64,000 bases of DNA from an uncultured Bacteroidales bacterium. Its GTDB lineage: Bacteria; Bacteroidota; Bacteroidia; Bacteroidales; GCA-2711565. Both the position numbers and the translations under genes were made by a program. Numbering within the stretch: position 1 is the stretch's first letter; each line of letters starts with the position of its first letter. Of the stretch, positions 722 to 31,163 are shown one piece after another. The notes beneath the pieces were generated by a model. That model saw only the letters and a list, made by a program, of their open reading frames with translations, did no database searches and was not told where the DNA came from. The stretch spans positions 39,497 through 103,496 of the forward strand of contig CALOCL010000003.1 of the NCBI GenBank assembly GCA_942491855.1. Reading direction: 5' to 3'.

Positions 722-2941
722 ATGAAAAAACAAATCTATATATTCATTTTAGTGATACTTATTATTTTAAATTTTAAATATGGGTTATCTCAAGAGAAAT
801 CAATTTCCGAAGTGCTTACACCTATTTATAATAAGTTTGGGATTGATTCTACCATAAAGACTTACTTGTTATTGAAGAATGAAGAAACTCAAGTATATGA
901 TTTTACAGAAAATCAATTAAATAATTTGGGGATCATTCTAATAAGAGAGGAAAAATTTGAAGATGCAATAAAGATCTTCGATTTGAATTCTTCTATGTTC
1001 CCTAATTCATGTAATGCAATTAATAATCTTGCCCGGGCTTATTTCTATTCTAAAGACTATTCTACTTCAAAGAAACTCTATGAAAAGGCCCTTAAACTCG
1101 ATTCTAATAATGTAGCAAAATATCAAATAGAAAGTATTTATAATGTATTAAATTATGATAAAAGGGAGTTCAATATTCCAATGCGGGATGGTGTTAAATT
1201 GCATACTCAAATCTACATTCCAAAAGATCAATCTAAAAACTATCCATTTTTAATAAATAGAACTAGTTACTCAACTTTTCCTTATGGTACATTTCCATAC
1301 AATTACAAAAATAAATTAGGTCCTACATGGGGATATAATCAAGAAGGATTCATTTTTGTTTATCAAGATGTAAGAGGAAGGTTTTTGTCTGAAGGAGAGT
1401 ATACGGAAATGAAACCATATAATCCTAATAAGGCAGAAGATGAGTCAGATGAGAGTTCGGATGTTTATGATACAATAGAATGGTTATTAAGGAATATTTC
1501 TAATAATAATGGTAAAGTTGGGCTATATGGCTACTCTTATCCTGGCTTTTATTCATTGATGGGACTTATTGATCCACATCCAGCACTAGCAGCTGTTATC
1601 CCTAAAGCCCCTATAGTCGACTGGTTTAAAGGTGATGATTTTCATCAAAATGGTGCATTCATGCTTCTTGCAGCATTAAATTATTTCAGGAGATGGGGGC
1701 ATGATAGCATAAGAAATACTACAAAAGTTCCAAATCCTATCTTTTCATTTGATCAAGAAGATTTATACACATACTTGTTAGAAAAAGGTTCTGCAAAGAA
1801 TATAGGAACTATTCTACTTAATAATAAAGTTCCTTTCTGGGATGATTTAATGCAACATGGAAACTATGATGATTTTTGGCAGACACGAAATGTTTCAGCA
1901 AATATTAATAAAGTAAGTATCCCTGTCTTAAATGTCGGTGGTTGGTTTGACAGAGAGAATATATATGGAACCTTAAATTCATTTAAAACCATTGAAAGTA
2001 AAAACCTAAAGAATAAAAATTCAATAATTGTAGGGCCTTGGTTTCATGGAGGATGGTATTTTGCTAATAACAGTGATTATCTTGGAGCATCAGATATTAA
2101 TGTAAAACAAAAAAGCACTGTTGAGATTTATAAAGATTTGGAAAAGAAATTCTTAAATTATAATTTAAAAAACCAAGGAGGAAATTCTGCTTCGAAAGCA
2201 TCTATGTATGATATTGGAATAAATAAGTGGAGATATTTTAATCAGTGGCCACCGAAAGAATTTGAAAGAAGGCAATTGTTTTTCGATAAGAATCAGACCC
2301 TTAGCTTTGATCAACCTCTTTCAAGAGAATCAAGCTCGAAATATATAAGTGATCCTTTAAATCCTGTTCCTGTAATGGGAAAAGTAATGCCTGATTTAGT
2401 TCCTGAACATGTGATTTGTGACCAGCGATTTGCAGAAAATCGTAAAGATGTTCTGGTTTTTCAAAGTGAAATACTGAAAGAAAACCTAACAGTTATTGGC
2501 CCAATTCAAGCAAATTTATTTGTGTCAACTTCTGGAACAGATTCTGATTGGATTATTAAAGTCATTGATCAATTCCCAGAAGATGTAGATGAATATCAAA
2601 ATGATGGTGAAAAGAGAGCTAATATGAAAGGATATAAAATGCTTTTAAGATATGGAGTTATGAGAGGAAAATTCAGAAATAGTCTTGAGTTTCCAGAACC
2701 ATTTATTCCAAATCAAATCACAAGTGTAAATTTCGAACTAAATGATGTTTGCCATACTTTTAAGAAAGGTCATAGAATAGTCATTTATGTTCAAAGCTCT
2801 ATGTTCCCCGCAATCGATAGAAACCCACAAATATTTACAGATATATATTCTGCTAAACCGAATGATTATAAGTCTGCTACTAATATACTATTTCATTCTA
2901 AAAAGCACTCATCTCATATAGCTTTTAAAATTCTAAAATAA
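722..2941 (+). CDS. CocE/NonD family hydrolase (peptidase S15-like) with N-terminal TPR-like module, exported
   Basis: 739-aa ORF with hydrophobic N-terminus and a TPR-like stretch (NLARAYFYSKDYSTSKKLYEKALKLD). S15 signatures FNIPMRDGVKLHTQIYIP and nucleophile elbow GLYGYSYPG, then a long C-terminal beta-sandwich-like region. Confidence 0.85.
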   Translation: MKKQIYIFILVILIILNFKYGLSQEKSISEVLTPIYNKFGIDSTIKTYLLLKNEETQVYDFTENQLNNLGIILIREEKFEDAIKIFDLNSSMFPNSCNAINNLARAYFYSKDYSTSKKLYEKALKLDSNNVAKYQIESIYNVLNYDKREFNIPMRDGVKLHTQIYIPKDQSKNYPFLINRTSYSTFPYGTFPYNYKNKLGPTWGYNQEGFIFVYQDVRGRFLSEGEYTEMKPYNPNKAEDESDESSDVYDTIEWLLRNISNNNGKVGLYGYSYPGFYSLMGLIDPHPALAAVIPKAPIVDWFKGDDFHQNGAFMLLAALNYFRRWGHDSIRNTTKVPNPIFSFDQEDLYTYLLEKGSAKNIGTILLNNKVPFWDDLMQHGNYDDFWQTRNVSANINKVSIPVLNVGGWFDRENIYGTLNSFKTIESKNLKNKNSIIVGPWFHGGWYFANNSDYLGASDINVKQKSTVEIYKDLEKKFLNYNLKNQGGNSASKASMYDIGINKWRYFNQWPPKEFERRQLFFDKNQTLSFDQPLSRESSSKYISDPLNPVPVMGKVMPDLVPEHVICDQRFAENRKDVLVFQSEILKENLTVIGPIQANLFVSTSGTDSDWIIKVIDQFPEDVDEYQNDGEKRANMKGYKMLLRYGVMRGKFRNSLEFPEPFIPNQITSVNFELNDVCHTFKKGHRIVIYVQSSMFPAIDRNPQIFTDIYSAKPNDYKSATNILFHSKKHSSHIAFKILK

Positions 2942-3080
2942 AAAATAATTTTTATGAAAACATATTGCTTTTTACTCTTGTATTATTTTTTTGTTTTTCA
3001 GGATTTAAAGACACTTCGGGCGAGAAATAGCAGTATATTATGAAATTTTATATTAAAAAATGAAAGGTGGTAAATATGTA
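2714..3080 (+). repeat. Direct repeat copy 1 (last 75 codons of the S15 gene, spacer, first codons of a small ORF); partner at 11887..12265
   Basis: Manual alignment: about 20 substitutions in 228 coding nt. Spacer blocks TTTTCAGGATTTAAAG and GAAATAGCAG are shared, as is GGTAAATATGT at the small-ORF start. Confidence 0.85.
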
Positions 3081-6119: not shown

Positions 6120-8048
6120 ATGAAAAGCTATAAAAATATCATTAAAAGATTAGGTTTGTTTTTTTTCTTTTTAATAGTCCTATTAATTCTTTTTCCCATA
6201 GTAATATCTGTTTTTAAGCTAACTCCTGATTATACTAAAAAATATACTATAGCTGGCTTTCCTATTAACACAATTAAATATATACAATTGGACAAGGAAA
6301 CAAATATTTGGATTAGTGTATGGTTGCCAGAAAATTTAAGTGCTAATAAAAAAATTTCAACACTAATTGAAACAAGTAGGTATGCTGAACATTTTGAAAT
6401 GGGATGGTTTTATAAAAGCTTGCAAGTTTTATCATTAGAGGATGATAACAGTTTCAAATCTGCTAAACCCAAGTTAGATAATGGATATGCTTACGTGTGG
6501 ATTCAATCTCCCGGATCATGCCAATCAAGTGGAGCTCGAAATATTGAATATCCCCCAAATGAAATTGATGCAATAAATACTGTAATTGAATGGATAATTA
6601 AGCAACCATGGTCAAATCAGAAGGTAGGAGCAATAGGTGGATCCTATTCTGGAACAACAGCAGAAATGAGTTGTGCTACAATGCATCCTGCACTTAAGGT
6701 CGTAGTATCTAAAGCACCTGATTTTGATCCTTATCAGGTAAATGCGCAACCAGGTGGATTGATGTCAGAAACATTTATAAAGACCTGGGCCAATATGATA
6801 TATAAAATGGATCAAAATGATGTTGTTGGAGTTGTAGAAGCGATTAATGGTGAAATGTCATTTATAGAAAAGATTATTCTTAAATCTCAGGTAAAAAAGT
6901 TAAAAGAACCTAACGAAGAGGATATTGATATTTATAACTTAGCTATAGAAAATCATAAAAATAATATTAAACCTGAAGAGCTTATTAAACTAATTGAATT
7001 TAAAGACCTTAGTGATACAAGGAGATCTAATCTTTCAATTGGTGATATTGCATTATATAACTACAAGGATAAAATTGAAGAAGCACAGGTGAACACATAT
7101 ACTTTAGTTGGATGGATGGATGCTGCTGTTGCCGAAGGAGCTTTACAAAAATATTTAACAATAAATTCTCCACAAGTTCTTACAATTTACCCAACAGGTC
7201 ATGTTTTAAGTAAATTGTCTGATCCATATGATACCTTGAAAACATTTAGTAAAAATGAAAAGGAAACCTTTGAAAATAATTATTGGAGTTATCTTGATAA
7301 GAATTTAAATTCTTGTTGTGAGAAAGAAGGAAGGAAAATTCGGTATTTCACATATGGAATTAATAAATGGCAAGAAACAACTGTATGGCCACCCAAAGGG
7401 GCTGAATATAAAAGATGGTACTTTAACGAAAATAATTCTTTAAAAACATCCAATCCATTAGTAAACAATGGCCTTGATAAATATATAGTTGATTTTACTG
7501 CAACTACAGGATCTAAAAATAGATGGATATCACAAATGGGGAAACATGTTATTTATAATGATAGAACAAATGAAGATACGAAGTTATTAACTTATACAAC
7601 TGATCCTTTAATTGAAGATATAGAAATAACAGGAAGTCCTACTGTAACATTATTTGTCTCCTCAACACACAAAGATGGGTCTTATCATATTTATCTTGAA
7701 GATATTACTCCGAATGGAGAAGCAATTTATTTAACAGAAGGTCTTTTAAGAGCGATTCATCGAAAGGAGTACCCCATCGAAGATGCACCTTATGTTCCGC
7801 TGGGAGTTTATCATTCATATTCTCAGTTAGATACAACATCCTTAGTTCCTGGGGAAGTTACCAAAATCAAAATATCATTATATCCGATTTCAACGGTATT
7901 TAAAAAAGGACATTCAATAAGGGTTTCAATTGCAGGCTATGATGCTTCAATGCAAAGCAAATATCCACAAGAGGGAACTCCAGTATTAAATGTTGAACGC
8001 AATTTGTTTTATAAATCAAATATTGAGATGCCAGTGATAAAAAGATAA
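6120..8048 (+). CDS. CocE/NonD family hydrolase (S15-like), membrane-anchored, highly diverged from 722..2941
   Basis: 642-aa ORF with N-terminal TM anchor (LGLFFFFLIVLLILFPIVISVF) and nucleophile elbow GAIGGSYSG. Size and C-terminal domain pattern match S15 hydrolases. Confidence 0.75.
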   Translation: MKSYKNIIKRLGLFFFFLIVLLILFPIVISVFKLTPDYTKKYTIAGFPINTIKYIQLDKETNIWISVWLPENLSANKKISTLIETSRYAEHFEMGWFYKSLQVLSLEDDNSFKSAKPKLDNGYAYVWIQSPGSCQSSGARNIEYPPNEIDAINTVIEWIIKQPWSNQKVGAIGGSYSGTTAEMSCATMHPALKVVVSKAPDFDPYQVNAQPGGLMSETFIKTWANMIYKMDQNDVVGVVEAINGEMSFIEKIILKSQVKKLKEPNEEDIDIYNLAIENHKNNIKPEELIKLIEFKDLSDTRRSNLSIGDIALYNYKDKIEEAQVNTYTLVGWMDAAVAEGALQKYLTINSPQVLTIYPTGHVLSKLSDPYDTLKTFSKNEKETFENNYWSYLDKNLNSCCEKEGRKIRYFTYGINKWQETTVWPPKGAEYKRWYFNENNSLKTSNPLVNNGLDKYIVDFTATTGSKNRWISQMGKHVIYNDRTNEDTKLLTYTTDPLIEDIEITGSPTVTLFVSSTHKDGSYHIYLEDITPNGEAIYLTEGLLRAIHRKEYPIEDAPYVPLGVYHSYSQLDTTSLVPGEVTKIKISLYPISTVFKKGHSIRVSIAGYDASMQSKYPQEGTPVLNVERNLFYKSNIEMPVIKR

Positions 8049-11860: not shown

Positions 11861-11883
11861 TTATTTGATTCTATGAGGATCTA

Positions 11884-12114
11884 CACCAAATTACAAGTGT
11901 AAATTTCGAACTAAATGATGTTTGGCACACTTTTAAGAAAGGTCACAGAATTGTAATTTATGTTCAAAGCTCTATGTTCCCGGTAATCGATAGAAACCCA
12001 CAAGTATTTACAGATATATATTCTGCTAAACCGAATGATTGTAGGTCTGCTACTAATATACTATTTCATTCTAAAAAACATCCAACTAATATAACTTTTA
12101 AAGTTCTTAAGTAA
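11884..12114 (+). pseudogene. 5'-deleted fragment (last ~76 codons) of a paralogous CocE/NonD hydrolase gene
   Basis: Translation HQITSVNFELNDVWHTFKKGHRIVIYVQSSMFPVIDRNPQVFTDIYSAKPNDCRSATNILFHSKKHPTNITFKVLK* aligns with the C-terminus of the 722..2941 product. An upstream in-frame stop and loss of similarity occur before 11884. Confidence 0.85.
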
Positions 12115-12243
12115 AAAATAATTTTAATAATAACACTTTGTTTTTTCTTTTGTAATGCTGATTTTTTTTGATTTTCAGGATTTAAAGATGCCTTGAGTAA
12201 GAAATAGCAGTGTCCAATCAAATCTTTACTTAAAAAATGATTG

Positions 12244-12534
12244 ATGAAAAAAGGTAAATATGTGATCACAAAGCATTCTCCAATTTTATTTATTCAAGGA
12301 ATCAAGCATAGTGAAATAGATTCTAATGCATGTAGTACAGGATTTTTTCATCTAATCGAGGATCCAAAATCCGATGAAGAGTTTCGGGTTGTTTGCCATT
12401 CGATGTCTTCTGTTTTGGGTTCTGGATTCGATTTCTTAGTCTTTGTCTTTACTCCGACTCTTCTTCCCGTTGTTCGCTTCAATAAAGATGTACATTTATT
12501 GTGTAATAATTACCCGTTTCAAATTAAACAATAG
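12244..12534 (+). CDS. Hypothetical small protein (96 aa)
   Basis: ATG at 12244. The N-terminal ~55 aa have a decayed paralogue at 3060..3219, which argues this part is or was coding. No family recognised, and the C-terminal half is hydrophobic and low in complexity. Confidence 0.45.
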   Translation: MKKGKYVITKHSPILFIQGIKHSEIDSNACSTGFFHLIEDPKSDEEFRVVCHSMSSVLGSGFDFLVFVFTPTLLPVVRFNKDVHLLCNNYPFQIKQ

Positions 12535-15801: not shown

Positions 15802-16163
15802 ATTCTTCTTCCATAAGATAATGCATCACTCATAAAATCAACAGACCATGTTTGATTGAGTGTAGTAGGTACAATTAGTGGTTCTTTTACTCTTGAAGGC
15901 AAGCGCCTTTTTCGTTTTCTACGGATATTTAACCCCATACTTCTATAAACCCTTAAGACACGCTTCCTGTTCCATTTTAAGCCTTCATTGCGTATGCGGT
16001 TGTAGTACTCATCAAAACCTCGTGTGGGGTGTTTCTCTGCCAGCTCATTAAGCCTGTCAATGACCGCTGTGTCATCCCGTTTGTTTTGATAGTACCACAT
16101 GGAGCGATGTAAATCAACCACCAAGCACGCCCTGTTTACACTTATTTGATATTCTTCTTGCAA
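15802..16163 (-). pseudogene. 3'-truncated IS3-family transposase OrfB
   Basis: ORF 15789..16163 matches the first 121 aa of the 277-aa OrfB at 27764..28597, then runs into unrelated flank. Confidence 0.9.
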
Positions 16164-16195
16164 ATAGCTTACCCGCTCTTTCTTTTCACAGGGCT

Positions 16196-16462
16196 TTAGA
16201 ACTTTTTTCCAAGTACGTCTTTTAACATCTCGTGGTCAAGACTAAGATCTGCATACATCCGTTTTAAACGCCTGTTCTCTTCTTCCAGTTCCTTGAGCTT
16301 TTTTAATTGATGGCTATCCATCCCGGAATACTTTTTCTTCCAATTATAGAATGTAGCTCTTGATATGCCATAGTCACGGCACAGATCTTTTACTTCTCTG
16401 CCAGCTTCATACTCCTTCAGTATCTTGATAATCTGGCTTTCACTAAATTTAATTCTTTTCAT
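16196..16462 (-). CDS. IS3-family transposase OrfA (copy in truncated element)
   Basis: 88 aa, identical to the product of 28630..28896. HTH region VKDLCRDYGISRATFYNWKKKY. Confidence 0.85.
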   Translation of the reverse strand: MKRIKFSESQIIKILKEYEAGREVKDLCRDYGISRATFYNWKKKYSGMDSHQLKKLKELEEENRRLKRMYADLSLDHEMLKDVLGKKF

Positions 16463-16527
16463 AATGACAATTTAAAGTTAAACATTTTGTCTAATTTTAA
16501 ACTGTCCGATTTTTAGGGAAGGCTACA

Positions 16528-17072
16528 TGGATACTTACAAAACCAAGTATCCCTTCAATATTTTAGAAGATAAACGTCAAAATGAACTCAATGATTTTCT
16601 GGATAAAATTGCAAAATACCAGGCAACGAAAATTTTAGTTTAATGGAACAGAATAAAATCAGAAAGTATTACAAACGTCAGGTATCAAGCCTTTTTGGGC
16701 GGTAATTTTGATTTGAGTAAAAAAACGAATGAAGTGTATCTGTAGCCTTCCCTAAAAATGTAGCCTTCCCTAAAAACCGTTCAAACCCTATGTGAGTAAC
16801 TGTTCATGCTTAACAGAAACGAAAACCGATTAAAAAATCATCAAGCCTATTTAACAAACATACTGGAAGGAGCCGGGGATAATTATCTGGGATCAGATGC
16901 CACCGCTAATTGGTATCGCAGAAACCTGAGAATTTTCGCTGACGCCTATGATTTAACCAATTTCGATCAACAAGAACGACTCTTGTTGATTTATGAATCG
17001 GGGTATGTATGGAAACTTCGGCAATTATTCACCGATTCGCCCGACTACGATTATGTGGAGGTAAATATTTAA
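16528..17072 (+). pseudogene. Disrupted hypothetical gene (resembles DUF5694-type Bacteroidota proteins)
   Basis: The fragment DTYKTKYPFNILEDKRQNELNDFLDKIAKYQATKILV-stop(TAA 16641-16643)-WNRIKSESITNVRYQAFLGGNFDLSKKTNEVY abuts IS ends on both sides. The C-terminal part (16806..17072, ...WYRRNLRIFADAY...LLLIYESGYVWKL) resumes after the solo IS-end doublet. Family assignment is from memory only. Confidence 0.6.
16741..16776 (+). repeat. Solo doublet of the 18-bp IS terminus TGTAGCCTTCCCTAAAAA, inverted relative to the truncated IS copy
   Basis: Two perfect tandem units (16741-16758, 16759-16776). They are followed by CCGTTCAAACCC instead of the IS interior sequence TCGGACAG. Confidence 0.9.
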
Positions 17073-25140: not shown

Positions 25141-25881
25141 TTAAATTTGAGCCTCAAGTTTGGCTTCTTCCATGATTACCTCATAAACATAACCAGCACC
25201 AAAATCTTTATTTAAATTGATTACACCGGTAAAAGTAACCACATCACCTACTTTTACAACATCGGCAGTAGTAATGGTTAAATCAAATGCTTCTCCTGTA
25301 CCTGAACCATCCTGGATGTGAACCCAGTTTTTGCCCATAATTGCTTCGTTGTATTTAACAACCTCACCTTTAATTTTAACGGTTTTACCTTTAAAACTTT
25401 GTGGGTTTGCAAACAATTCACCTAAGGTAATTCCACCTTCAGCCTTCTCAACTTTAATTTCTTTTTTTACAGCCTCCTGAATCATTCCATAAGGTACTGG
25501 AGATGCGTTTGCAGGAGTTTGCAGTGAACCCGGTTCGAATCCAACTTCGTTCAGAAAATAAACCAGTTCAAATGTTTTACCAAGTTCTTTACTTTCAAAA
25601 TTTTCCATGGCCAAACCATCCGTGAAATATACTACTTGATCTACGGAAAAATCTTGCTTTGTACAAGCCACCCAAAAAGTTTCTTTATTTTCTTCAACCA
25701 ATAAATAACTATAAACAGAGGTCTGAAGGACTACTTTCACTGTTGCTTTATGCTGACCAGCAGCTTTTGTAACAGTAGTTTCGACTGCTTCAACTGAATC
25801 AGCATTGGTTGATCTTAATTTACAATCAGTTACAGATACAAACAATATCATTAATAGGAAATAGTTTTTGAATTTCATCAT
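25141..25881 (-). CDS. Hypothetical lipoprotein with C-terminal OB-fold-like domain
   Basis: Lipobox LFVSVTDC. The C-terminal FKGKTVKIKGEVVKYN...WVHIQDGSG...DVVTFTG pattern resembles tRNA_anti-like OB folds. Function unknown. Confidence 0.55.
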   Translation of the reverse strand: MMKFKNYFLLMILFVSVTDCKLRSTNADSVEAVETTVTKAAGQHKATVKVVLQTSVYSYLLVEENKETFWVACTKQDFSVDQVVYFTDGLAMENFESKELGKTFELVYFLNEVGFEPGSLQTPANASPVPYGMIQEAVKKEIKVEKAEGGITLGELFANPQSFKGKTVKIKGEVVKYNEAIMGKNWVHIQDGSGTGEAFDLTITTADVVKVGDVVTFTGVINLNKDFGAGYVYEVIMEEAKLEAQI

Positions 25882-26319
25882 TATAAGTTTAGTAGTATAG
25901 TTAAAAATTAGCATTGCCATTACTCATCAATGCTTGCCAAAAATAGTTATTTTTTTAAATACTAAAGGAGAAAGTAAGATGATATATTTCAGATTTCCGA
26001 TTAACTTTTGCCAAAAATCAGTACAAGCCTTCGTTTACTATATTTACCTGAGTAGAAAGAATTATGACCAATTACATACATCAATACTCTTATATTCAAT
26101 AACATATGAAGTTTGACATAAATTACTTTTTCAGAAAAAATATTAAACATTTAATGAGCAACGGTTTACTACACCTTCAATTGCTTTTTCAATTTAGCCC
26201 AAGTATTAAAACAAAAGGGCTCTCTTTTCATTATTTATTATAGCACAAACATACACCGGTCACCCTCATATATAGGTATATGGAAATATATTTCAAAATA
26301 CATAAATTAATTTTACATC

Positions 26320-26340
26320 ATACATAGCTTAACTATGTAT
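26320..26340. promoter_or_regulatory. Perfect palindrome ATACATAG-cttaa-CTATGTAT, candidate PadR operator
   Basis: 8-bp arms, 20 nt upstream of ATG 26360 and just upstream of a TATATTTG -7-type box (26348-26355). Confidence 0.4.
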
Positions 26341-26359
26341 TTTTATTTATATTTGCAAT

Positions 26360-26692
26360 ATGAATAATTTATTTATACATAAATGGACGGCTCAGGTTAA
26401 GAAAGGAGTACTTTCTTTTATCGTATTAAATCTTTTAAAAGAAAGCACCTATTATGGATATGAACTAATTGAAAAAGTGAAAATTAGTACAGATATGGAT
26501 ATTGCTGAAGGAACTTTATATCCTTTGTTGATAAAATTAAATAAAGAGAATCTGGTCACTTCAAAATGGGTAGAACAAAAGTATGGGATTCCTAGAAAAT
26601 ATTATTCATTATCTGAAGAAGGAAAAATCACCCTTCAGAAGATGAAAGAATACTGGTTACTTATGAGTGATTCTATTCAAAAAATATCGTAA
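26360..26692 (+). CDS. PadR family transcriptional regulator
   Basis: 110 aa with EGTLYPLLIKLNKENLVTSKWVEQKYGIPRKYYSLS. Confidence 0.9.
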   Translation: MNNLFIHKWTAQVKKGVLSFIVLNLLKESTYYGYELIEKVKISTDMDIAEGTLYPLLIKLNKENLVTSKWVEQKYGIPRKYYSLSEEGKITLQKMKEYWLLMSDSIQKIS

Positions 26693-26694
26693 AG

Positions 26695-27270
26695 ATGCAG
26701 CATATTAAATTATCATCAACAACATCTCAGCGCATTTATAATAATTATCTGAAGAGAGTTAAAAAATGCATTGAAATTTTATCTGAAACGGATAAAGAAG
26801 ATATCCTAATGGAATTAAACAGTCATATTTTTGAGGGCATGCAAAGGTTTTCGAACGAATCCGAAGCTGATAAACTACTTATAATTATTGAAAAACTTGG
26901 TATTCCTGAGGAATTCTTAAAACCAATTACTGCTGAAAAGAAAATTGAACAAGCCATCCGAACATTTAATCCAAAACATATATTTCAAGGATTAGTTTTA
27001 AATTTAAAAAATAGTTTAAAATACAGTATTTTTTCAGTTCTATATTTATCATTATTTGCGTTTGTATTTCTTATAGCTGCAAAGATTATTTTTCCTTCAC
27101 AAACAGGTTTGTTCTATTTAAATGGCAAATTTGTGGCCCTAGGCTTTACGAGTAATGCTGAATCAATGAATGAAGTTCTAGGTTTTTGGTTTATCCCATT
27201 ATCCATAATAACAATTGTACTGCTTTATACATTTATAACCTTATTTCTTCGATTTACTAAGAAGAGGTAA
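26695..27270 (+). CDS. Membrane protein of the DUF1700-like type found after PadR genes
   Basis: 191 aa with a soluble helical N-terminus then TM segments. Its start lies 3 nt after the padR stop. Confidence 0.55.
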   Translation: MQHIKLSSTTSQRIYNNYLKRVKKCIEILSETDKEDILMELNSHIFEGMQRFSNESEADKLLIIIEKLGIPEEFLKPITAEKKIEQAIRTFNPKHIFQGLVLNLKNSLKYSIFSVLYLSLFAFVFLIAAKIIFPSQTGLFYLNGKFVALGFTSNAESMNEVLGFWFIPLSIITIVLLYTFITLFLRFTKKR

Positions 27271-27763
27271 AAATTTTTATATGATTACATAGTATAACAA
27301 TGTATTTTAAAAAAATAACAATAATGAAAAAAACGATATTATTAACATTATTCTGTACAGCATGTTTTTTTGTAATGCACAAATAAACAAACAGATATTT
27401 GCTAAACCACTTGATAACATAAATGTTATCGTAATGAAATTAGATGGGAATACAATCATTGAAAGCACACAATCAAATAAAATTAATATACTCTCCTTTT
27501 AAATAAGAGTGGCAGTGTCTGGGGATGGCGAAAACCAATGAAAAGAAATCTATTTGAAATAAAAAGCAAAGAATCTAATGACACTCTATTTGTATCAACC
27601 CCATTCTTTTTTAATTATACAAGTATCGGAATAAATACTTATAAAGAAACGATAGAGAATATAATCCGAATTTCAAGTAATAAGAATATAATTATACAAG
27701 AAGTAGACAATTTGACCTTCAAAGGTGAATTTGCGATGTAAACTTACCCTTTATCGGACAACA

Positions 27764-28597
27764 CTAATATAGACATTTCTCGGTTATTTTATTGTTTTTT
27801 CTCAGGAAGTTAACTTCCTGAGAAAAAGTTTCTGCATACTTTTTCGGACTCATCTTATTAAGCGAACTATGTGGATGATAGTTGTTATAGTCCTCCATCC
27901 ATTGTTCAATAAGTATTTTAAGTTGGCTAATGTTATCAAAAAGATAGGCATCTAGTATATCTTCCCTAAACAGTCTGTTGAATCGTTCAATGTAAGCATT
28001 TTGAACTGGTTTTCCCGGTTGGATATACTTAATCTCGATTCCCTGGAACTCGCACCAGTTAGTAAATACCCTGGATATAAATTCAGGACCATTATCAACA
28101 CGGATACTTTTAGGCTTCCCTCTGAAAAATATTACTTCTTTCATGACACGGATCAGTTGTTCTGCTGGGAATGAAAAGCCTGGTTCTACGGCAAGGGCTT
28201 CCCGGTTATAATCATCAATAATATTCAAAATACGGATTCTTCTTCCATAAGATAATGCATCACTCATAAAATCAACAGACCATGTTTGATTGAGTGTAGT
28301 AGGTACAATTAGTGGTTCTTTTACTCTTGAAGGCAAGCGCCTTTTTCGTTTTCTACGGATATTTAACCCCATACTTCTATAAACCCTTAAGACACGCTTC
28401 CTGTTCCATTTTAAGCCTTCATTGCGTATGCGGTTGTAGTACTCATCAAAACCTCGTGTGGGGTGTTTCTCTGCCAGCTCATTAAGCCTGTCAATGACCG
28501 CTGTGTCATCCCGTTTGTTTTGATAGTACCACATGGAGCGATGTAAATCAACCACCAAGCACGCCCTGTTTACACTTATTTGATATTCTTCTTGCAA
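27764..28597 (-). CDS. IS3-family transposase OrfB (DDE/rve)
   Basis: 277 aa with WSVDFMSD (D), RVDNGPEF (D) and NAYIERFNRLFRED (E). The annotated start is TTG, so expression as an OrfAB fusion is expected. Confidence 0.9.
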   Translation of the reverse strand: MQEEYQISVNRACLVVDLHRSMWYYQNKRDDTAVIDRLNELAEKHPTRGFDEYYNRIRNEGLKWNRKRVLRVYRSMGLNIRRKRKRRLPSRVKEPLIVPTTLNQTWSVDFMSDALSYGRRIRILNIIDDYNREALAVEPGFSFPAEQLIRVMKEVIFFRGKPKSIRVDNGPEFISRVFTNWCEFQGIEIKYIQPGKPVQNAYIERFNRLFREDILDAYLFDNISQLKILIEQWMEDYNNYHPHSSLNKMSPKKYAETFSQEVNFLRKNNKITEKCLY

Positions 28598-28629
28598 ATA
28601 GCTTACCCGCTCTTTCTTTTCACAGGGCT

Positions 28630-28896
28630 TTAGAACTTTTTTCCAAGTACGTCTTTTAACATCTCGTGGTCAAGACTAAGATCTGCATACATCCGTTTTA
28701 AACGCCTGTTCTCTTCTTCCAGTTCCTTGAGCTTTTTTAATTGATGGCTATCCATCCCGGAATACTTTTTCTTCCAATTATAGAATGTAGCTCTTGATAT
28801 GCCATAGTCACGGCACAGATCTTTTACTTCTCTGCCAGCTTCATACTCCTTCAGTATCTTGATAATCTGGCTTTCACTAAATTTAATTCTTTTCAT
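28630..28896 (-). CDS. IS3-family transposase OrfA (HTH)
   Basis: 88 aa: MKRIKFSESQIIKILKEYEAGREVKDLCRDYGISRATFYNWKKKY plus the coiled-coil LKELEEENRRLKRMYADL. Confidence 0.9.
   Translation of the reverse strand: MKRIKFSESQIIKILKEYEAGREVKDLCRDYGISRATFYNWKKKYSGMDSHQLKKLKELEEENRRLKRMYADLSLDHEMLKDVLGKKF
28636..28642 (-). promoter_or_regulatory. Programmed -1 frameshift heptamer A-AAA-AAG
   Basis: Minus-strand sequence GGA AAA AAG TTC TAA at the end of orfA. The -1 frame reads GKKVLKPCEKKERVSYLQEEYQIS into orfB. Confidence 0.8.
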
Positions 28897-28943
28897 AATG
28901 ACAATTTAAAGTTAAACATTTTGTCTAATTTTAAACTGTCCGA

Positions 28944-29015
28944 TTTTTAGGGAAGGCTACATTTTTAGGGAAGGCTACATTTTTAGGGAAGGCTACATTT
29001 TTAGGGAAGGCTACA
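28944..29015. repeat. Four perfect head-to-tail copies of the 18-bp IS terminus TTTTTAGGGAAGGCTACA
   Basis: Units at 28944-28961, 28962-28979, 28980-28997 and 28998-29015, with no spacers. Confidence 0.95.
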
Positions 29016-29225
29016 GCGAAACTAAAAGTTAATAACTCCAGAAAAACAAACTACCAATCAATTAAAAAATCAGAAACAAAAATATTGAAATGTACAGCAA
29101 ATAAAAATTTAATAATTAATGGTGAGTTAAAGAAAAATGATTATGAATTTAGGGGATTGGGGATTAATTGTATCAGTTTAGATGCGAATAAAATCAAGAT
29201 AGATATACACTAAAATAAAAATATC

Positions 29226-31163
29226 ATGAATAAATATGTACAAAAATCAAAGACGAGATTTAACAATAAATCTAAATTAGTATTTATAATAAGTCTACTA
29301 TTAAATTTTTCTTTTACATTTTTAGTTCATCAAAAACCAATGGCTAACAAGCAAGAAGAAGCTAGTCAAATTGAAACTTTAGATGATTTAAAATTAGAAA
29401 TTGAAAAAATCTTAAGGAATACAAACACACCTGCTGTTGGTATTGCATTAATAGATGGGAACGGGTCTCAATGGATTGGAAGTATAGGGAAAGCAAATGT
29501 TGAAGATAATATTGATGCGGATGAAAATACAATGTATCGTATAGGTTCAACTTCAAAAATATTTGTCTCTTTGGCAATTCTTAAATTGCAACAGGAAGGG
29601 TTGATAAGCCTAAAAAACAAGGTAAAGGATCTAGTGCCAGAAATTGAATATGAAAACAAATGGGAAGCGAGCTCTCCTATTCTTGTCGAACATTTGCTTG
29701 AACACACTACTGGTTGGGATGATATTCACATAGCAGAATATGCGCATAACGATCCCAACCCAACTAGCTTAAAAGAGGCATTAGATTTCCACCCAGATTC
29801 AAGAATATCACGTTGGATACCCGGAACACGCATGTCTTATTGTAATTCTGGCCCATGCGTCGCAGCTTATATTGTTGAAAAAATAACGGGCGAAACTTTT
29901 GAAGACTATATTAAGCATAATTTTTTTCAACCCTTAGGGATGGAAGAAATGACATACTTTGCTTCAGATGCTGTTAGACAACATGGAGCAACACTCTATG
30001 CTAATGGGAAAGCTGAAAAATACTGGCACTATCTCTTACGTGCATCAGGCTCAATTAATGCTAGTCCAAAAGACATGGCTAAAATGCTTAATTTCTTTAT
30101 TAATAGAGGCCGTGTAAATGACTCACAGATCATAAGCGAAACTTCTTTAAAACGAATGGAAACACCCTCAACATCATTAGGAGCCAAAGCTGGTATGGAA
30201 AGTGGTTATGGATTAAATAATTATTCTTCTACTCATAAATCTTTCATTTTCAGAACGCATGGTGGTGGCGTTCAAGGAGGAAATACGTCCTTTTCCTACC
30301 TCCCGAAATATAATTCAGGTTATGTTATGATGCTCAATTCTGGTAATATTAGTGTTTACTATAAAATGAATAAACTTATACGCGATTACCTAACAAGAAA
30401 CTATTCTGCAAATGACATTACCCCAGATACAACTTTAACAAAAAAGCATGCACAAATTTCCGGATATTACCTACCCATAAACCCAAGATCGCAAATAACA
30501 TATTTTATAGAAAGAATTATAAATGCACAACACGTTTGGTATAAAAATGATAGTATTTTTAGGAAGAGCTTAATAGAAGGTCAAGTCTATAAATATCTTC
30601 CAGCAAAAGGTTGCCGATATAAAAGAGCTGAAAGTGGGCTAATTGACATGGTTCAAGCAGAAGATCCTTTAGCCGGTGATGTAATTCATGTCAACTGGGA
30701 AGTTCTAAAACAGGTTTCTCCCATACTAGTTTATGGTCAATTTATCTTAAGTGCATTATGGTTAATCATGATGTTATCAAGTATTATTTGGGGATTCTTT
30801 TGGTTGATACGTTTTTTGATAAACAAAAAAACTAAAAAACTTACTATTAAAGTGCAATTATGGCCACTTATTTCGAGTTGGTTCATAATGTTAGCAATAA
30901 TAGTTTTAATAAGTGTTATCGGAAATATCTCACTTTCATTTGAGCAGTTAGGTAACGTTAGTGTAATTTCTGTAAGTATTATGTTACTAACCATTGGCTT
31001 TGCACTGTCTTCCTTATGGTCAGTAATTCTCATTATAAAAAACCGGCAGCTCAAGTTAAATAGATATGTTTATTGGTATTCGGCTATTTTATCAAGTTTA
31101 CATTTAATTGTGAGCTGTTACTTAACTTGGCATGGTATCATAGGCATACAAACATGGGCCTAA
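29226..31163 (+). CDS. Beta-lactamase-fold serine hydrolase fused to a C-terminal 4-TM domain
   Basis: 645 aa. SxxK in IGSTSKIFVS and YCNSGP (YxN). The C-terminal ~150 aa form four hydrophobic helices. Confidence 0.85.
   Translation: MNKYVQKSKTRFNNKSKLVFIISLLLNFSFTFLVHQKPMANKQEEASQIETLDDLKLEIEKILRNTNTPAVGIALIDGNGSQWIGSIGKANVEDNIDADENTMYRIGSTSKIFVSLAILKLQQEGLISLKNKVKDLVPEIEYENKWEASSPILVEHLLEHTTGWDDIHIAEYAHNDPNPTSLKEALDFHPDSRISRWIPGTRMSYCNSGPCVAAYIVEKITGETFEDYIKHNFFQPLGMEEMTYFASDAVRQHGATLYANGKAEKYWHYLLRASGSINASPKDMAKMLNFFINRGRVNDSQIISETSLKRMETPSTSLGAKAGMESGYGLNNYSSTHKSFIFRTHGGGVQGGNTSFSYLPKYNSGYVMMLNSGNISVYYKMNKLIRDYLTRNYSANDITPDTTLTKKHAQISGYYLPINPRSQITYFIERIINAQHVWYKNDSIFRKSLIEGQVYKYLPAKGCRYKRAESGLIDMVQAEDPLAGDVIHVNWEVLKQVSPILVYGQFILSALWLIMMLSSIIWGFFWLIRFLINKKTKKLTIKVQLWPLISSWFIMLAIIVLISVIGNISLSFEQLGNVSVISVSIMLLTIGFALSSLWSVILIIKNRQLKLNRYVYWYSAILSSLHLIVSCYLTWHGIIGIQTWA

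Follow-up and report, generated by a model that had tools for sequence, protein, structure and literature searches.

Among the families of bacterial insertion sequences, IS3 is one of the largest. Its elements move by a copy-out, paste-in route, the chemistry of which is known from a handful of single-tip elements. In IS150, orfA and orfB are connected by a -1 frameshift at an A6G motif, the transposase is of the DDE type, the ends are TG..CA and the element is flanked by a 4-bp duplication. Its inverted repeats follow the layout TGTA-N5-CCC-(A5/T4)-N2-3-GGACAG, with an A-run at one end and a T-run at the other. Read from the genome of E. coli K-12, the two ends are TGTACTGCACCC-ATTTTGTT-GGACG and TGTACTGACCCC-AAAAAGTT-GGACAG, the right repeat as a whole being TGTACTGACCCCAAAAAGTTGGACAGTT. 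As far as we know, and as far as the literature searched shows, IS150 and the other described members of the IS3 family have one tip per end. The function of the parts of such an end has been studied for IS911, whose transposase binds the subterminal repeat with its N-terminal domain, so that the terminal part is left free for the catalytic domain (PMC2909936).

More than one end-derived motif at the same place is seen in other contexts. When IS911 and IS30 are targeted to inverted repeats, or form (IS)2 junctions, the transposase recognises a resident end as a target, which places the ends of two elements next to one another. Tn7, Mu, IS21 and Tn402/Tn5053 carry several copies of an end-derived motif at the transposon terminus; it is the subterminal binding site which is reiterated in these elements, in a number that is constant for a given end, and of these copies the outermost alone lies beside a cleavage site. 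Nearly precise excision of Tn10, and the transposase/IEE-dependent excision of IS629 and ISApl1, make use of short repeats or microhomology near the ends and leave behind a small end-derived remnant, which retains the target duplication. MITEs have both complete ends and create duplications. Together with solo repeats they make up short, non-autonomous, element-derived DNA across the Bacteroidota, some of it with tandem repeats; in Porphyromonas gingivalis, for example, a minisatellite has been described inside a MITE (PMC4596501).

Here we analyse a 64,000-nucleotide stretch (hereafter the window) of a contig from an uncultured Bacteroidales bacterium (GCA_942491855.1, CALOCL010000003.1). It contains an insertion sequence which shares the features listed above with IS150, the frameshift being predicted, except that in elements of this kind the outer 17-18 nt are reiterated up to four times. 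A further difference to IS150 is that the tip units also occur as orphans and as mini-palindromes. Unlike in Tn7, Mu, IS21 and Tn402, it is the cleavage-proximal module that is reiterated, and the number of copies is variable and usually one. Unlike MITEs, the units are half-repeats, consisting of the outer module only, which are stacked directly on the tips of elements. The earlier note on this DNA knew of no description of multiplied ends of this kind in the IS3 family. Our full-text literature search likewise recovered no published description of reiterated IS3-family tips. The array is one case of a habit which is widespread in this lineage of elements and apparently undescribed.

Results

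A fourfold tip array inside a target-site duplication

The 18-mer TTTTTAGGGAAGGCTACA has seven exact matches in the window, compared to 0.01 expected in shuffled sequence. On the plus strand it is found four times in tandem at 28944-29015 and once at 16510-16527, and on the minus strand twice in tandem at 16741-16776, which amounts to one, two or four units per site. The fourfold run consists of perfect tandem copies of the outer module of a minus-strand element (TGTAGCCTTCCCTAAAAA), the innermost unit being 28944-28961 and the outermost 28998-29015. TRF assigns to it a period of 18, 4.1 copies and 100% matches. The exact search and TRF therefore both recover the four perfect tandem 18-mers that had been noticed before.

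The tetranucleotide GCGA is present at 27733-27736 and again at 29016-29019. Deleting 27737-29019 restores an ORF of 130 aa, in line with the earlier observation that this deletion rejoins a single reading frame, and public data contain exactly this protein (P0001, with identity and coverage of 100%). It is encoded on L118, a 3.8 kb contig from Logan run ERR9669565, which aligns to positions 25734-27736 and 29016-30831 of the window with 99.9% identity. GCGA is single in L118, and the two blocks of the alignment have these 4 bp, and no more, in common. Thus, the inserted DNA corresponds to 27737-29015 and includes all four units, which bears out the proposal that the array lies within the target-site duplication. 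L118 represents an empty site, and the insertion is recent.

The host ORF that is split by the insertion (plus strand, 27538-29213, in two parts at 27538-27736 and 29020-29213) has no family match. It is the third gene of a cluster (26360-29213) in which it lies downstream of genes for a PadR protein and a HAAS-domain membrane protein, and which is intact in L118. For the orfA of the window and for the neighbouring proteins, public look-ups had no other copies on record.

Anatomy of the element

Counted with one tip unit, the canonical element occupies 27737-28961 on the minus strand and is 1225 bp long, with TG...CA ends. The closest relative among the matches listed is an element in L015, which also measures 1225 bp and shows 88.5% identity over the full length. 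Relatives bounded by the same ends are 1203-1231 bp long, and several of them have 4-bp duplications. The first frame, orfA (minus strand, 28630-28896), encodes 88 aa with a helix-turn-helix and matches the N-terminal part of the NCBIfam profile NF033516 (IS3 family transposase). A related orfA has more than 5,400 homologues, most of which are exactly 88 aa long. The second frame, orfB (minus strand, 27764-28642), encodes the DDE catalytic part and is recognised by the same profile with 212.7 bits at a cut-off of 160. Where the two frames overlap there is an AAAAAAG motif (28636-28642), at which a -1 frameshift is predicted to open a 377-aa OrfAB fusion.

The inverted repeats of the element, with their TG...CA ends, are imperfect. 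The left one reads TGTAGCCTTCCCTAAAAATCGGACAG, or by module TGTAGCCTTCCC-TAAAAA-TCGGACAG, and the right one reads TGTAAACTTACCCTTTATCGGACAAC, or by module TGTAAACTTACCC-TTTA-TCGGACAA. Seen inward on the plus strand, the right repeat (27737-27762) begins with the outer module TGTAAACTTACCCTTTA, followed by the inner module TCGGACAAC. Its layout of outer module, A-T spacer and GGACA is common to the left repeat and to the repeats of IS150. At 28936-28943 the left repeat has its inner module (minus strand, TCGGACAG), which is single and adjoins the innermost unit of the array only. It reads T(A/C)GGACAG in relatives, and the right repeat of IS150 has GGACAG.

A DDE profile, overlapping frames with A6G, TG...CA repeats and the 4-bp duplication GCGA are all present, and by every sequence-level criterion the element is an IS3-family insertion sequence. 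Judged by repeat architecture alone, it resembles IS150. The module layout shared with IS150, taken together with the binding pattern of the IS911 transposase, indicates that the reiterated 18-mer is the outer, cleavage-proximal module. The unit had been assigned earlier to the tip of an IS3-family element, as the first 18 nt of its transposase-proximal inverted repeat, and this is hereby confirmed. Moreover, in six complete relatives the TG..CA tips are flanked by 4-bp direct repeats (GCCG, GGAG, CTAT, CCTC, AGTG and GGTT), and since these duplications lie outside the tips, the unit must move together with the element. We also considered that the unit might be one half of an independent host palindrome with the element in its loop. 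This was ruled out by the duplications, both in the six relatives and in the window, and by the IS150 architecture.

A truncated second copy and an orphan doublet

A second copy of the element is located at 15802-16527 on the minus strand and carries a single tip unit at 16510-16527. The earlier note had called it a sister copy with one unit, and it is indeed 100% identical to the full copy (726 of 726 positions), but it consists of the left 726 bp only and is thus a truncated fragment rather than a whole element. The claim that unit number varies between otherwise identical sequences needs to be divided. It holds for the array and the partial copy, which have four units and one unit, respectively, across 726 identical bp. 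It does not hold for the doublet, which is a deletion scar and not the state of an intact element.

The two units of the doublet (plus strand, 16741-16776) had been described as an isolated repeat. Instead, they sit within a DUF5694 pseudogene (plus strand, 16528-17072; Pfam PF18950, homologues P0002-P0038), and alignment A1 shows that, compared to 8 homologues, 65 codons (195 bp) are missing exactly at the doublet. On the left, the host sequence ...GTG TAT C is followed by the first unit, which makes this junction the original insertion point. On the right, the second unit ends with 9-11 nt (TCCCTAAAAA) that at the same time serve as codons for the host residues S-L-K(T). At this point GATTCCCTGAAAACC is read in L124, one of the homologues, and the deletion junction therefore sits in microhomology. 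On this evidence the doublet is the scar of a microhomology-mediated deletion, which removed a third copy of the element together with 195 bp of the DUF5694 gene. The Pfam match had looked contiguous, as expected for a simple 36-bp insertion; this explanation was dismissed because the homologue alignment shows that the 65 codons are absent. The pseudogene has three lesions in all, the N-terminal truncation by the partial copy, the 65-codon internal deletion and two in-frame stops.

Being made of two direct outer modules with no target duplication, the doublet also differs from a MITE or a solo repeat, for which both ends and a duplication are expected. Its junction in microhomology fits a published model in which the transposase-dependent excision of copy-out elements occurs by strand switching (bioRxiv 10.1101/2023.06.07.543989). 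By analogy, the doublet resembles the remnants of nearly precise excision, and the mini-palindromes described below may do so as well.

Elsewhere in the window a repeat of about 370 nt is found at 2707-3074 and 11880-12251, 9.17 kb apart and with 75-86% identity. It covers the 3' end of a 739-aa ORF and sequence downstream of it. No long ORF extends over the second copy (11880-12251); it may represent part of a paralogous gene.

Stacked tips in other genomes

We searched one genome per species for exact matches to the 18-mer and found it in at least 117 loci. Among the matches listed, to which all counts in this paragraph refer, nearly all belong to the Bacteroidota, namely to Flavobacteriales, Bacteroidales, Cytophagales and Chitinophagales. 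The exact unit forms 124 runs, of which 40, or about one third, are stacked. In 51 of the 124 the inner module follows, as in an ordinary left end. Ten runs are mini-palindromes, composed of the unit and an inverted outer arm of a right end, 23 directly abut another TGTAGCC-like tip, 14 are followed by other sequence starting with TG and 23 by unrelated sequence, and the remaining three terminate at the end of a contig. When left ends, mini-palindromes and contig-end runs are excluded, TG comes next after 37 of 60 runs (62%), compared to about 6% by chance. Extra abutting units are present on 8 of the 47 left ends with readable upstream sequence (approximately 17%), the other 39 being single. 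Thus, the array is not peculiar to this copy but an instance of a feature that recurs across the lineage.

All 50 unit-to-unit joins among the matches listed are direct and head-to-tail, the only spacer being the 4-6 nt of A/T between modules, and none of the 50 is a head-to-head tip junction. This distinguishes them from the targeted insertions of IS911 and IS30, which, in work ascribed to Loot and colleagues in 2002, reportedly give head-to-head ends with a spacer of 2-4 bp. It also disagrees with the processing of abutted-end junctions, which had been suggested as a possible origin of the array and which predicts head-to-head tips with a 3-4 nt spacer. Head-to-head tips were found at no locus searched, and we therefore rejected abutted-end junction remnants as the source of the stacks.

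Stacking is not restricted to units of one type. Left-type units are found on right ends (L003, L016, L053, L058, L086 and L101), and left ends may carry the right-type unit of the same element (L052, L064 and L115). In L106 the order is left, right, right, followed by the left end of the element. One such stack, left-type units on the right end of the L092-type element, is represented among the matches listed by five loci, which lie in four genomes and differ in their flanks. Even another kind of IS3-type element, TGACCTCC..., has left-type units on its ends (L061, L062 and L011). In these three genomes the 18-mer lies 0-1 nt outside the tip of the TGACCTCCTCCC... element (L061 6530-7767, L062 2547-2600, L011 1436-1480). 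A scan of metagenomes for arrays of at least three units recovered a threefold array on a left end, present at one and the same site in two independent metagenome assemblies (L119 and L120), and, on a metagenome contig, a fourfold array of left-type units stacked onto a different species of element at its right end.

Many of the stacked ends are solo-repeat remnants without a transposase gene and, for this reason, are of little informative value regarding current activity. When loci were sampled via orfA homologues instead, a directly abutting stack was found at none of about five independent sites, which indicates that stacks are a minority. The elements sharing the exact 18-mer are otherwise 64-76% identical (L001-L117) and vary in the outer modules of their right ends, but the contrast between the conserved 18-mer and the variable right ends is inflated because the scan selected exact matches.

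Several loci show further arrangements. L104 contains, at 7725-7760, a doublet of a different outer module, TGAAGGCTTCCCTGTTTT, followed by TCAAACAG, and tip stacking therefore extends beyond the exact 18-mer. In L083 (2270-2338, the locus also represented by L127-L134) an orphan tip doublet is separated by 16 nt from a complete element, on the outer side of its left end, a position which hints that elements tend to insert near orphan units. Stacked copies are also nested in related elements, at a distance of 74 nt from a left tip (L027 1355-1680) and of 67 nt from a right tip (L119 734-860); they look like element graveyards or the result of a preference for insertion near ends. Finally, one and the same element copy is combined with differing flanks across metagenomes (L127 versus L129; L135, L136 and L138). 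This shuffling indicates homologous recombination between copies, which accounts for the fact that about half of the complete copies are without duplications. In the three other complete stacked elements, L101, L064 and L061, no duplication was found outside the stack.

Mini-palindromes

The mini-palindromes are 31-35 bp long and combine a left outer module with an inverted right outer arm, as in TGTAGCCTTCCCTAAAAAGGGTAAGGCTACA (L014 319-349). The sequence of the arm agrees with right ends that belong to several different species of element. An extra unit stands beside the mini-palindrome in L032, L060 and L088. Around the nine mini-palindromes examined (L014, L017, L022, L030, L039, L047, L051, L088 and L110) no target duplication was found, in contrast to the excision remnants of Tn10, IS629 and ISApl1. 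A deletion similar to that at the doublet, across the CTAAAAA that is common to both ends, may have given rise to them.

Discussion

The explanation we prefer, and in which we place about even confidence, is that the array represents a stack of nested tips which is heritable and whose copy number drifts by slippage or by the choice of tip. Each unit corresponds to the outer module, the catalytic-contact part of the left repeat, and has its own TG/CA cleavage dinucleotide, and only the innermost unit lies beside the GGACAG inner module, where IS3-family transposases bind. Transposition from the outermost tip would carry the whole stack along. This appears to have happened here, given that the 4-bp duplication flanks the stack as a whole, although the same pattern is also expected if the fourfold array expanded in place after the insertion of an element with one or two units. 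The number of units would then change quickly. Slipped-strand mispairing of the identical 18-bp units, the probable source of the copy number of four, could raise or lower it, and it would fall whenever an inner tip is used. A stacked element would be lost by microhomology-mediated deletion at the A-run, and its outer units would stay behind as orphans.

None of the models tested above and below accounts for all observations on the first extra unit; what they leave is an event that is tip-precise, one-sided and without duplication. Our favoured guess is a transposition-coupled event in the synaptic complex. It might be a one-ended strand transfer, or else a template switch at the point where synthesis stalls at the transposase-bound inner module; in both cases the tip of an element would become attached to a resident outer module at its inner edge.

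At both multi-unit sites of the window, and thus at two of its three insertion sites, the outermost tip abuts intact host sequence. With approximately 17% of left ends being stacked, independent formation at two of three sites seems less likely than inheritance. Both this and the heterotypic stack recovered at five loci speak indirectly for the earlier suggestion that the units are nested alternative ends; that the outermost tip can serve as a transposon end is the part of it which we infer. If the spacing of the two modules is fixed, a tip displaced by another 54 bp relative to the inner one may serve poorly as a substrate.

A more radical view, which we put forward tentatively and consider rather unlikely, is that the 18-bp module is an autonomous and portable tip, which is cleaved and transferred without the inner module and stacked onto ends by an undescribed joining reaction. 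The 3'-OH of a tip, or a stalled nascent strand, would join the edge of a module, and the resulting stacks would be inherited. If this were true, each array would be a molecular record of end-processing events, and a left-type tip capping a right end would provide the element with perfect 18-bp termini.

Alternatively, the array could be a minisatellite that grew in place by slippage or unequal sister-chromatid exchange, with no role for the transposase and with outer units that are never used as ends. That the four units are identical, that their number differs between otherwise 100% identical copies and that growth in place leaves the duplication outside the array is all in line with this idea. 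Its first step is difficult, however, since the first duplication would have had a microhomology of only 1 nt (T) to start from, and yet in dozens of cases that are independent of one another the repeats begin and end exactly at the element tip and at the edge of the module. The units of the fourfold array in the window are homogeneous, as in a slippage minisatellite, whereas the wider stacks are heterotypic and always bounded by a tip or a module edge. Local slippage cannot generate left-type units on right ends, right-type units on left ends or a fourfold array on another species of element, and multi-unit arrays at two of the three insertion sites in the window also argue against it. We therefore regard an origin by slippage alone as unlikely.

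Somewhat less probable again is self-targeting, in which a new copy integrates at one of two places, the A/T spacer within a resident inverted repeat or the loop of an end-derived mini-palindrome, and homologous recombination or end choice then yields a one-sided stack. A hidden 4-bp duplication of AAAA would make the units look unspaced, and 14 nt plus AAAA gives exactly the 18-nt unit. The homotypic and "opposite-type" stacks predicted in this way are both observed, mini-palindromes exist and some are flanked by an extra unit (L032, L060, L088), and there is a precedent in the IS3-family elements IS1397 and ISKpn1, which insert into the loops of palindromic units. However, the reciprocal junction of tip, AAAA and inner module is absent from the 117 genome loci listed, from L118 and from the window, and none of the complete elements among the matches listed has extra units on both sides. 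Furthermore, the far ends of L101, L064 and L061 are without AAAA or TTTT, and the seven observed duplications are GC-rich and not A-tracts. We thus discarded nested insertion into the spacer of an inverted repeat, as the predicted reciprocal junction was present at no locus searched, and also insertion into the loop of a mini-palindrome, as there was no two-sided product and the far-end flanks of L101, L064 and L061 did not match.

The array might also be a designed multi-site end, in which transposase-binding sites are reiterated, as in Tn7, Mu, IS21 and Tn402, in order to build a larger transpososome or to tune activity. Stacks do recur across genomes, and the conservation of 18 out of 18 positions between elements that are 64-76% identical suggests more constraint than a bare cleavage site would impose, but this conservation is inflated by the selection of exact matches. 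Moreover, the number of units ranges from one to four instead of being fixed, 39 of 47 left ends among the matches listed are single and many stacks are on dead remnants. In place of a fixed number of reiterated subterminal sites we find a single inner module, and what is reiterated is the TG-bearing tip module rather than the subterminal binding module. All this makes such a design improbable. Least credible of all is that the assembler inflated one unit to four, since, even though tandem repeats are sometimes mis-assembled, the array is only 72 bp long and thus shorter than ordinary short reads, and arrays of two to four units are present in many independent assemblies, including the threefold array at the same site in L119 and L120.

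If the stacks were inert products of slippage, the finding would be a curiosity. Natural nested tips, in contrast, being phased to the boundary between the catalytic-contact and the binding module, would provide a test of the distance that is allowable between cleavage site and binding site, and would also probe which side reactions the transpososome performs. Finally, stacks, orphans and mini-palindromes constitute an unannotated class of short repeats in the Bacteroidota, which marks past activity of the elements and the sites of deletions.
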